A stretch of 64,000 bases of DNA from a virus (lineage: Duplodnaviria; Caudoviricetes). The DNA lies in IMG/VR virus record IMGVR_UViG_3300037067_012588. One strand, written 5' to 3'. The notes beneath the pieces are model-generated. The model did not search any database. It was not told the origin of the DNA and worked only from the letters and a program-made list of their open reading frames with translations. This document shows positions 29,277-32,049 of this stretch, one piece after another (the stretch's first letter is position 1; each line of letters begins with the position of its first letter). The position numbers and the translations under genes are program-made.

Positions 29277-29308
29277 CAAAAAAGGATGACGGAAACCCGT
29301 CATCCCTT
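29277..29308 (-). terminator. intrinsic terminator
   Basis: GGATGACGG-GTTT-CCGTCATCC followed by TTTTT. Confidence 0.7.
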
Positions 29309-29337
29309 GTCAATTATCAGAAAAAAGTTTACCCGTG

Positions 29338-29574
29338 TCACTCTTGTGGCTTTTTCACAATCTTCCCGCACCGCACACAGACATCGTATTCATATGTCTT
29401 GGTAATATCATGGGCGTTCAACAACTTCTGAATGTCGTTCAAGCTCCCAGTTACTCGTTGAATCTTGATATTACCAATGGGACTCTGAACATCTTTCTCT
29501 GAATACCGTGCCTCAAATTTGTGCCCAAGCAACGCACCAATGATACCACGGCAACCTTCATCTTCAATCGTCAT
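29338..29574 (-). CDS. hypothetical protein
   Basis: C...GHKF ... CVRCG. Confidence 0.55.
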   Translation of the reverse strand: MTIEDEGCRGIIGALLGHKFEARYSEKDVQSPIGNIKIQRVTGSLNDIQKLLNAHDITKTYEYDVCVRCGKIVKKPQE

Positions 29575-29797
29575 CTTCAATCTCCTGATAATCTTCACAT
29601 ACTCCGCCACCCTCTGGATGAATCGGGCTACGTCTCTGCTTCCCGTTCAGCATCCCGCCAATAACCCATTCTCCATCCTTGCAGAAGGTACACTCAAATA
29701 TGTGCCCAGATGCCGAACTACCCATACAAACAAAGCCATCAAAACCATCACACCTTGTTTGCCAAAAGCACCACGGGACTGCGTTTTCCTTCGTCAT
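29564..29797 (-). CDS. small Cys-rich hypothetical protein
   Basis: ATGA overlap with thyX. Confidence 0.55.
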   Translation of the reverse strand: MTKENAVPWCFWQTRCDGFDGFVCMGSSASGHIFECTFCKDGEWVIGGMLNGKQRRSPIHPEGGGVCEDYQEIEDDD

Positions 29798-31269
29798 TGA
29801 TATACCTCGATATCGTCAAACAATGGCTTCGCCCATACAAGAAGCTGCTTGTGAATCATCTCACAAACCTCCCGAATCTGAGGATGCGCTGCCTTGGATG
29901 TGCGAAGCTTCATGATGTGCCGCCACTCACGAGCATTCGTCGTAACAACGAGCTCAGTCTTCAAACACGTCGGTAACACAGAACGTGCAATTTGTGGCGT
30001 ACAACCACGATCAAGCATATCACCATATAAAACCTCTGCTTGAGACATAGCTTCGCCCCAAACCCAAGAAGCCTCCTCGCAATTTACTGGAAACGGAGGA
30101 ACAATACACTGAACACGACCAACACCACAATCACGAAGCTCTATTGGACGCCCAATTGCTCTTAAAGCCCTTGATGTTTTTTCTGGATGACCGTATGGCC
30201 AATTGAAGTTCGAATACATCTTTTCACAAAGATGTTTTGCCCTAGAAGGAGTGCAAACACTAATCCTCCACAAATCGTCACAGCCGTGAACCTTGACAAC
30301 AGAGCAAGTGTTTCCAAACTCTTTCTCTAAGAAACCGGCAATATGGCCAATCAAGAACTTGTTCCCATTCCAACAAATATTTACAGACTCTGTTTTTCCT
30401 TGGTTTTTCTGCTCAAAAAACCGAAGACTACCATCACCATCCAAAAGACCACGCATAAAATCAAGCCTGAAGTCTCTGACACTTTCCCACAAACTACCAA
30501 CCTCTTCCTCTGACCACTCAAAAGACTTCCTTGGCCGAATGCCGTGACGATACAAATCTTCCCATAACTCTTTGGATGTTATAGTATATTGTTTACAAGA
30601 TCCATCTTTGTACCCAGACACTTGTGGGTGTATAAAGTCAGAAACAAATTGTTTTATAAACCATCCATCTTTTTGTGTTATGGATAATGATTGCCCATTA
30701 TCTCTCATTGACCCATCTGCTGCAAACATCCCAAGAAACCAAGCCTTTTCTGGACTATCTATAACACTCATGAAATCGTGAATAACTTTTCCATGATTGT
30801 TCTTTGACCTGATACTTACTCCTCCCTCAATCAATGCATTCCGAACATCCCACTCTGTCATGATTCCATTACTTATCTCTGAAATCTTTCTCATTGAAAG
30901 ACCATCTTCATAGAGCTTGCAAACAGTCTCCTCGTTGAATGCAATAACCTTGTCTTTGTAACGAACATACCTTGTCGACTCCTGCGCAAAACTCGGAATA
31001 CGGTGGCGAACGAACTCGTGCGTCACGCCCCTGTCTGTGATGATATGAAAGCTCGCCGAAACATGCTCGATCATCGCAGTATGGTCACGTTCGACAAGAC
31101 CACGAACAAACTTCTCAGCACGCTCACGACAAGCTGGACACTTCCCATCTTTGCATTCGCACGTCATTTTTTCTTCGGACTTGTAACAAACACGACCGAT
31201 ACGCTCAATCGTGAAGATTGGCTCTTCTGTGGCCCAAATCAAACTGACTGACGGCTCAACAATCTTCAT
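29794..31269 (-). CDS. thyX: flavin-dependent thymidylate synthase with an in-frame LAGLIDADG insertion
   Basis: HEFVRHR..SFAQESTRY, ARSVLP, NAREWRH, AHPQIR. Confidence 0.9.
   Translation of the reverse strand: MKIVEPSVSLIWATEEPIFTIERIGRVCYKSEEKMTCECKDGKCPACRERAEKFVRGLVERDHTAMIEHVSASFHIITDRGVTHEFVRHRIPSFAQESTRYVRYKDKVIAFNEETVCKLYEDGLSMRKISEISNGIMTEWDVRNALIEGGVSIRSKNNHGKVIHDFMSVIDSPEKAWFLGMFAADGSMRDNGQSLSITQKDGWFIKQFVSDFIHPQVSGYKDGSCKQYTITSKELWEDLYRHGIRPRKSFEWSEEEVGSLWESVRDFRLDFMRGLLDGDGSLRFFEQKNQGKTESVNICWNGNKFLIGHIAGFLEKEFGNTCSVVKVHGCDDLWRISVCTPSRAKHLCEKMYSNFNWPYGHPEKTSRALRAIGRPIELRDCGVGRVQCIVPPFPVNCEEASWVWGEAMSQAEVLYGDMLDRGCTPQIARSVLPTCLKTELVVTTNAREWRHIMKLRTSKAAHPQIREVCEMIHKQLLVWAKPLFDDIEVYQ
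30130..30950 (-). mobile_element. HTH plus double-motif LAGLIDADG homing endonuclease inserted in thyX (boundaries approximate)
   Basis: AWFLGMFAADGS and DFMRGLLDGDGS; appears more AT-rich than the flanks. Confidence 0.8.
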
Positions 31270-31494
31270 TCACTCGCCTCCTAACAAGACATGTTCTGTA
31301 ACGTAAGGACAATAACTCGGAACCTCACTCGTTCTGGTAATTTTACCATTCGGGCAACGAACAATACCTTTCGCCCAAGTTTCCTCATCCCTTGGACATT
31401 TCAGAGAACCCCAAGGAACTGGAGTTTTTTCTCTTCCAGTATTCGTAATAGCCATACAAGCCTTGCAAATCCTCTTCGATAAAACGCAACTCAT
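31270..31494 (-). CDS. CxxC...CPYxxEH-family small Cys-rich protein
   Basis: KRICKAC...WAKGIVRCP...PSYCPYVTEHVL. Confidence 0.78.
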   Translation of the reverse strand: MSCVLSKRICKACMAITNTGREKTPVPWGSLKCPRDEETWAKGIVRCPNGKITRTSEVPSYCPYVTEHVLLGGE

Positions 31495-31694
31495 TCTGAA
31501 ACGACATGTTCAAGTAAAAATGGACACCAGTCTTTTAGTTTCTTGTCCACGTGATATCCCTCATCACCAACATGAGGCTTATGCGGACAACTCACAAGGC
31601 CTCTTCTCCATAAATCATCAAACACAATCTGCGAGAACTCTGGGTTCACCTTCTTCTGACAAAGCATACACAATGAACGGTTAGCGATTGTCAT
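31491..31694 (-). CDS. CxxC...CPFxxEH-family small Cys-rich protein
   Basis: SLCMLC...WRRGLVSCP...WCPFLLEHVVSE. Confidence 0.78.
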   Translation of the reverse strand: MTIANRSLCMLCQKKVNPEFSQIVFDDLWRRGLVSCPHKPHVGDEGYHVDKKLKDWCPFLLEHVVSE

Positions 31695-31707
31695 TTTATT
31701 TGTCTTG

Positions 31708-32049
31708 TTAAGAAACAGGAACTATCATTTTTCCAGTTCCACTACAGGATGAACAACACACGTTTCCATACCCAACCGACATACCGTAAACCAGCCCATA
31801 TCCAGAACAAGCAACACAAGGAACCTCTCTCAAGGGAACAATTTTCCCATCAACTTTTGATATCCTCTTTTTTTCTTCTTCGAACATCGGAGTGAAAGTA
31901 TCTTTCTCAAAAGAAATATCTGTTCCGCAAACTTCTGAGTCTTTGTTCTGAGTGGAAAAATCTTCGGCATCTCTGAGAAAACGCCATACAAAAGAACCAG
32001 CAGGTAAAATACCCGAATCATTATCTATACGTTTTACTGAAAATAACAT
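31708..32049 (-). CDS. protein with DnaJ-like CxxCxGxG repeats
   Basis: CVACSGYG, CSSCSGTG. Confidence 0.6.
   Translation of the reverse strand: MLFSVKRIDNDSGILPAGSFVWRFLRDAEDFSTQNKDSEVCGTDISFEKDTFTPMFEEEKKRISKVDGKIVPLREVPCVACSGYGLVYGMSVGYGNVCCSSCSGTGKMIVPVS

Follow-up and report, generated by a model that had tools for sequence, protein, structure and literature searches.

An in-frame LAGLIDADG endonuclease domain beside the ThyX signature of a jumbo phage, a candidate splicing-free mobile insertion

The stretch of viral DNA analysed here, 64,000 nucleotides (nt) long and hereafter called the window (IMG/VR record IMGVR_UViG_3300037067_012588; Duplodnaviria, Caudoviricetes), comes from a jumbo phage with a genome of ~345 kb. 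On its minus strand it carries an open reading frame (ORF) for the thymidylate synthase ThyX, into which a homing endonuclease of the LAGLIDADG class is inserted in frame (Table 1). A preliminary description of the window, made from the sequence alone, had reported an insert with a helix-turn-helix (HTH) and two LAGLIDADG motifs at this place, and the arrangement was confirmed by the uninterrupted frame of 491 amino acids (aa), by Pfam and NCBIfam profiles and by alignments. The Pfam family Thy1 matches the protein in two stretches with 146.9 bits in total, the first covering residues 10-110, and the score of the NCBIfam model TIGR02170 (thyX), 116 bits, exceeds the cut-off of 87.9. ThyX chains of the PDB cover residues ~20-109 and 399-489, with the middle skipped. 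The protein has the Thy1 fold, the motif RHRxxSxxxxSxR(Y) in the form RHRIPSFAQESTRY, and the C-terminal arginines of a ThyX. Residues R88, H89, R90, E97, S98, R100 and Y101 of the N-terminal part as well as R429, R447, R456, H462 and P463 of the C-terminal part are invariant across the family of insert-bearing proteins described below.

The position of the insert was determined by comparison with insert-free sequences, among them those of Faecalibacterium phage FP_oengus, phage Phass-1 and many IMG/VR contigs. These relatives read ESTRYCNYSKDKF followed by G/D-x-x-I-x-x-I-x-P, whereas the window protein reads ESTRYVRYKDK, then 278 further residues, then VQCIVPP, and this comparison of the loop sequences sets the boundaries of the insert at residues 108 and 385. 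The insert had been described as lying just after QESTRY. It does lie beside this motif but starts seven residues on, after RYKDK. The loop that follows the motif is variable in ThyX, and the enzyme of Mycobacterium tuberculosis has ~26 extra residues there. The G+C content at third codon positions (GC3) of the insert is 0.35, compared with 0.52 in the N-terminal and 0.44 (29797-30114) in the C-terminal ThyX flank.

Within the 491-aa protein, the Pfam family LAGLIDADG_3 (PF14528) matches residues 174-208. The assignment to the LAGLIDADG class is given by two acidic-ended helices (D185/G186 and D279/G280) in a tandem fold, and the window insert retains 52 of the 60 highly conserved insert positions, D185 and D279 among them. 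An AlphaFold2 model computed on a 62-sequence alignment of the family reached a predicted local distance difference test (pLDDT) score of 91.2 and a predicted template modelling (pTM) score of 0.85, with low confidence in the N-terminal linker. In this model the insert comprises helices at residues 113-148, two alpha-beta-beta-alpha-beta-beta-alpha halves at residues 173-351 and a helix at residues 362-371. Foldseek ranked I-Tsp061I, an endonuclease encoded in an intron, at the top (E 2e-8) together with whole ThyX chains, for which the TM-score reached 0.78 (3ge9, root-mean-square deviation 3.3 A). Matches to both I-Tsp061I and complete ThyX chains indicate that both folds are intact.

Table 1 Features of the chimeric thyX gene in the window, listed in the direction of translation.
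Feature	Position	Strand	Residues	Remarks
Chimeric thyX ORF	29794..31269	-		491 aa plus stop; GGAGG ribosome-binding site 7 nt 5' of the ATG
ThyX N-terminal part	30949..31269	-	1-107	GC3 0.52
Small CxC...CxxC four-cysteine insertion in the ThyX part	31129..31161	-	37-47	Missing from most ThyX relatives
ThyX signature RHRIPSFAQESTRY	30967..31008	-	88-101	
In-frame insert, HTH and double-LAGLIDADG homing endonuclease	30115..30948	-	108-385	278 aa, 834 nt, GC3 0.35
N-terminal linker	30934..30948	-	108-112	Conservation 0.36; low pLDDT; in-frame length variation across the family
Three-helix HTH DNA-binding module	30826..30933	-	113-148	
Double LAGLIDADG core	30205..30753	-	173-355	Best structural match I-Tsp061I
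LAGLIDADG motif 1, AWFLGMFAADGS	30709..30744	-		D185, G186
LAGLIDADG motif 2, FMRGLLDGDGS	30427..30459	-		D279, G280 invariant
PYGHPxK conserved segment and helix	30154..30204	-	356-372	K364 invariant in free-standing relatives too
C-terminal linker	30115..30153	-	373-385	Conservation 0.38
ThyX C-terminal part	29794..30114	-	386-491	Plus stop

Invasion of conserved coding sequences by homing endonucleases is, in the textbook view, tied to a self-splicing intron or intein (PMC3943268). The preliminary description had taken this dependence as a premise; as the prevailing view it stands, but published exceptions exist in phage methylases (PMC9957025, PMC11855218). The claim that neither kind of element is present here held up in profile and covariance searches. 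No Hint or intein family of Pfam matched the 491-aa protein at E<=1, and the model contains none of the beta-rich lobes of a Hint fold, the ends of the insert being formed by the three-helix HTH and by a helix. In family alignments of 24 and 62 sequences, neither a conserved Cys, Ser or Thr at the start of the insert nor a conserved terminal Asn or Gln with a following nucleophile at its end was seen. The marks of an intein, i.e., an N-terminal Cys, Ser or Thr or the class 2/3 substitutes, a block B TxxH and a C-terminal (H)N before Cys, Ser or Thr, are lacking, and the junction columns are variable. With Pfam, junction alignment and fold model all negative, an intein was rejected. Likewise, Rfam 15 was run in permissive mode and returned no group I or group II intron at E<=10 on positions 29300-31800 of the window and none at E<=1 in another locus with the insert (L084); the matches obtained were at chance level and to unrelated families. 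An intron need not keep the frame of its host gene, yet all 89 clusters of the family are open in frame across both junctions. On these two grounds an intron of either group was rejected as well.

Other types of insertion were also considered. Neither direct or inverted repeats nor a target-site duplication or terminal inverted repeats were found at the insert junctions, and a transposon-like insertion was rejected because the latter two are missing. A nuclease hidden out of frame, as in the ShiLan domain of actinophage methylases, was rejected since ORFs in the other frames of the insert span only 51-84 aa and the nuclease itself is in frame. Inspection by eye of the region near the beginning of the insert gave no convincing ribosome-binding site with an in-frame start from which the nuclease could be translated separately; M126 is conserved but lies within the HTH core.

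A search of 5.8 billion proteins recovered 89 clusters (at 90% identity) that share the insert architecture. All are metagenomic, 408-616 aa long and 35-47% identical to the window protein, and most align with it over nearly the full length. The distance between fixed ThyX landmarks is 279-295 residues in these proteins, always in frame, compared with 8-13 residues in insert-free ThyX. Column conservation is 0.62 in the HTH, 0.56 in the LAGLIDADG core, 0.67 in the PYGHPxK segment and 0.61 in the ThyX halves, and falls to 0.36-0.38 in the linkers. Judged by these values, conservation of the nuclease is on a par with that of ThyX and variation is confined to the two linkers, which points to a folded, selected domain between protein linkers and not to RNA splice sites.

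The source names of the family members indicate gut Bacteroidales-associated and environmental samples, and in one subgroup the ThyX part comes nearest to crAss001 gp54. Among 50,697 deposited phage genomes the architecture is absent, no record covering at least 80% of an insert-bearing query. IMG/VR holds a few insert-bearing examples (L084, L181) and no close relatives of the window's own thyX. A scan with patterns taken from ThyX motifs returned insert-free thyX only, a limitation that follows from the derivation of the patterns from these motifs. Two thyX genes deserve a remark on their reading frames. Under the standard code, an in-frame TAG (code 15) divides the thyX of Phass-1 (L002:1501-2154), so that its annotation covers the second half only. 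The thyX of L183 (L183:3001-3639) has one in-frame stop and possibly belongs to another recoded phage.

To compare the history of the insert with that of its host gene, a tree was built from the ThyX parts of 61 insert-bearing and 91 insert-free sequences with the insert columns removed. Explaining the distribution of the insert on this tree takes 29 changes, and branches with at least 95% support force no fewer than nine of them. The approximately unbiased (AU) test rejected a single clade of carriers with a difference in log-likelihood of 526 (p 7.6e-5). This test is conservative, since co-converted flanks would pull the carriers together. The ThyX part of the window itself is 63% identical to insert-free genes and 56% identical to that of the nearest carrier.

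Individual pairs show the same discordance on a finer scale, some having inserts of 97-98% identity within ThyX genes that reach only 38-59% at a distance from the insert. The inserts of carriers P0063 and P0067 are 98% identical and their adjacent flanks 93-98%, compared with 38% in the distal N-terminal and 59% in the distal C-terminal part of ThyX. For P0045 and P0055 the respective values are 96% in the insert and 59-64% in distal ThyX. Carrier P0019 and the empty allele L182 are 79% identical overall. In an alignment read by eye they are near-identical except for a CN to VS exchange at the junction and ~45 residues just downstream of the insert, and the latter are similar to the downstream flank that accompanies other inserts. 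Such tracts of identity reaching into the flanks are the co-conversion expected from gene conversion started by an endonuclease. By these comparisons the insert and the ThyX gene around it do not share one history, and the cassette appears to be mobile in the relatives of the window.

The insert alone matches phrog_4645, annotated as 'endonuclease', with an E-value of 6e-25. When it was searched against 1.84 billion representative proteins, 17 matches fell below 1e-30, almost all of them ThyX-sized; next came ~100 free-standing HTH-LAGLIDADG proteins of 250-340 aa, which align with the insert from end to end. Further relatives are intron-encoded endonucleases of Staphylococcus Twort-like phages, e.g., that of the Quidividi recA intron. 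The existence of free-standing and intron-encoded homologues suggests that the cassette is an ordinary phage homing-endonuclease gene turned into a domain of its own target, and it looks like such a gene after loss of its start and stop codons. Two further proteins, P0289 (576 aa) and P0334 (517 aa), carry related HTH-LAGLIDADG endonucleases fused in frame to the N-terminus of DNA-modification proteins of the Mom family (PF25680); they represent a possible further case of a splicing-free fusion of nuclease and host.

We consider it likely that the insert is a homing endonuclease which persists without splicing as a tolerated domain in a surface loop of ThyX. The preliminary description had offered a tolerated, non-splicing selfish insertion among its readings, besides a domesticated fusion and an unrecognised route of splicing; for the first of these, the missing splicing elements, the folded domain, the discordant histories and the AU test give good support. 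What was found agrees with such an insertion: an open frame, no splicing domain or ribozyme, a host fold preserved in the model, and a patchy distribution with an insert history discordant with that of the host gene. The product would be one 491-residue chimera in which an intact ThyX fold bears an autonomous endonuclease domain in the variable surface loop after RHR...ESTRY, with a flexible linker on either side and nothing that removes the insert. Upon co-infection with a phage carrying an insert-free thyX, the chimeric endonuclease would bind and cut the empty site, predicted to be the DNA encoding approximately ESTRYCNYSKDKF, and recombinational repair would copy the endonuclease coding sequence together with some flanking thyX into the broken allele. 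Carriers would be immune to cutting because the insert disrupts the target. The element would persist as ThyX still folds and probably works with the extra domain; the variability of the loop and the compactness of the nuclease on its flexible linkers would explain why the host tolerates it. ThyX is normally a tetramer. A frameshift or stop codon in the insert would destroy ThyX, so that selection on the host would protect the nuclease ORF, a role usually ascribed to inteins. Given its conserved residues, the window copy is presumably still an active nuclease.

Several points weigh against this explanation. Covariance models of Rfam can miss divergent introns, and the insert, being close to the active-site loop, may affect the activity of ThyX. 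The mosaics were seen in protein sequences only, and ordinary recombination not started by a nuclease could also yield them. Moreover, the signs of mobility come from relatives and not from the window's own copy, whose insert has no close relative (best identity 47%); this copy could therefore be old and no longer homing.

The last point leads to the reading that the insert is a domesticated or fossil domain, which entered this lineage once, long ago, and no longer homes. It would be kept either since breaking it breaks ThyX or through a function for the host, e.g., tethering the synthesis of deoxythymidine monophosphate (dTMP) to DNA or excluding competing phages. Recent movement of the window copy is indeed unsupported at 47% identity, the model gives the chimera with confidence as a single protein, and the LAGLIDADG domain of actinophage methylases offers a monophyletic parallel with no evidence of transfer (PMC9957025). 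However, both catalytic aspartates and most of the conserved nuclease positions are kept, the family is polyphyletic on the ThyX tree with recent transfers, the ThyX part of the window groups with insert-free genes, and the insert differs from its flanks in GC3. We therefore regard domestication as unlikely. That the insertion killed the enzyme, leaving the ORF as a mere carrier of the nuclease while the phage uses another thymidylate synthase or relies on the host, is suggested by the distance of only seven residues between the insert and the substrate-binding motif. It is nevertheless highly improbable, as R88, H89, R90, S98, R100, Y101, R429, R447, R456 and H462 are invariant among carriers, the two halves together take up a normal ThyX fold in the model and the ThyX parts of carriers are as conserved as insert-free genes.

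We give slightly less credence still to cryptic splicing, either by a divergent group I intron that is fully open and in frame or by protein excision without a Hint domain. The evidence against it is of the negative kind only. Covariance models can overlook unusual introns, and true inteins do occur in other ThyX genes one to five codons from the insert site, which shows that removal is normally what selection favours here. Against it stand the lack of an intron match in two loci and of a Hint fold in the model, junctions without conserved nucleophiles or a terminal Asn, and the ~89 diverged members, all open through both junctions, in which the linker changes length in frame; such changes fit a protein linker and not the RNA helices of a splice site. 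Least probable, with a very small chance in our estimation, is removal or processing of the insert without Hint domain or ribozyme, be it by autoproteolysis and re-ligation or by cleavage in the linkers to give a two-chain ThyX and a free nuclease. If true, it would add a new type of protein maturation, one tied to a mobile element. Tolerance of an unspliced homing endonuclease thus remains our preferred explanation.

The N-terminal part of ThyX contains a second, much smaller peculiarity, the four-cysteine insertion listed in Table 1, which is possibly a zinc knuckle. In P0027 this position holds a longer Cys-rich insert. Directly 5' of thyX, on the same strand (31270-31694), lie two small Cys-rich ORFs of 74 and 67 aa.

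If the explanation favoured here is correct, selfish nucleases are able to invade the core of an enzyme without any splicing element. Widespread in uncultured phages, the element has a distribution that bears signs of homing still under way. This case and the actinophage methylases jointly suggest a wider, largely unannotated class of mobile elements that insert as domains and do without splicing. With no carrier among the deposited phage genomes, annotation pipelines would simply label such genes 'thymidylate synthase'. The system also lends itself to experiment, as it offers one gene, thyA complementation as a read-out and a defined empty target site. Questions that could be addressed are how far an enzyme loop tolerates insertion, and whether inteins arise from naked insertions or the reverse. 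Furthermore, a stretch of about ten codons of motif and loop in ThyX receives three kinds of mobile element, which makes the gene a place to study the competition between them.

Canonical inteins of ThyX are known from mycobacteriophages (TdS inteins of cluster C1; Kelley et al. 2016, PMC5050341) and from the metagenomic proteins P0091-P0118. They match Intein_splicing (PF14890), have junctions of the form C...HN followed by Ser or Cys, and bear mostly HNH nucleases (e.g., P0091, P0092, P0096 and P0103). They sit between QE and STRY or between ESTRY and CNY, one to five codons upstream of the window-type insert. The two kinds of element share the host gene and the hot spot, and inteins too are mobile by homing, but the window insert has neither a Hint domain nor splice junctions. 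An observation on residue 102 (codon 30964-30966) touches both: carriers nearly always have Val where many of the empty alleles compared have Cys (ESTRYC to ESTRYV). This Cys is the +1 nucleophile for the inteins that follow ESTRY, so that insert and intein may be mutually exclusive. The exchange of Cys for Val may also be part of target-site immunity.

The free-standing endonucleases of phrog_4645 and the DOD endonuclease of the Quidividi recA group I intron are homologous to the insert from the HTH to the C-terminal helix. Unlike it, each of them forms an ORF of its own, complete with start and stop codons, between genes or in self-splicing introns. Outside phages, fungal mitochondria of the Ophiostomatales provide in-frame fusions of LAGLIDADG sequences with rps3, whose coding sequence is itself contained in a mitochondrial group I intron (Gibb and Hausner 2005, cited in PMC7902536). 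To the extent that this secondary account describes them, they resemble the ThyX insert in that a LAGLIDADG coding sequence shares the frame of a host protein gene and no intein is involved. The Ophiostomatales fusions are reportedly terminal, in contrast to an internal insertion next to a catalytic motif. Our literature search for LAGLIDADG insertions in ThyX returned only papers on inteins.

The closest precedents come from the methylases of actinophages. DNA methylases of cluster F actinobacteriophages (Taj_79) contain, outside any intein, a 'second' LAGLIDADG domain of 139 aa in frame (Gosselin et al. 2023, Genes 14:288, PMC9957025). It is represented by nine sequences, which group as a single clade and give no evidence of transfer. 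Like the ThyX insert, it is in frame, resembles intron-encoded endonucleases and is predicted to form a domain of its own with the host fold intact. The ShiLan domain of actinophage methylases is actively homing by means of a hidden, out-of-frame HNH nuclease (Arsenault et al. 2025, Genes 16:178, PMC11855218). It shares with the ThyX insert the insertion into a gene for a phage enzyme, the open frame and the lack of intein or intron features, and a loop projecting from the host protein is predicted for it. In ShiLan, however, the in-frame translation is a passenger loop, whereas in ThyX the in-frame domain is the nuclease and no significant ORF was seen in an alternative frame of the insert. 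Compared with the Taj_79 domain, the ThyX insert is larger (278 aa), combines an HTH with a double motif, lies beside the catalytic motif, and occurs in ~89 clusters that are polyphyletic and show co-conversion mosaics. What is new relative to these precedents is a full LAGLIDADG enzyme placed in frame beside a catalytic motif, in a large family with clear evidence of co-conversion.

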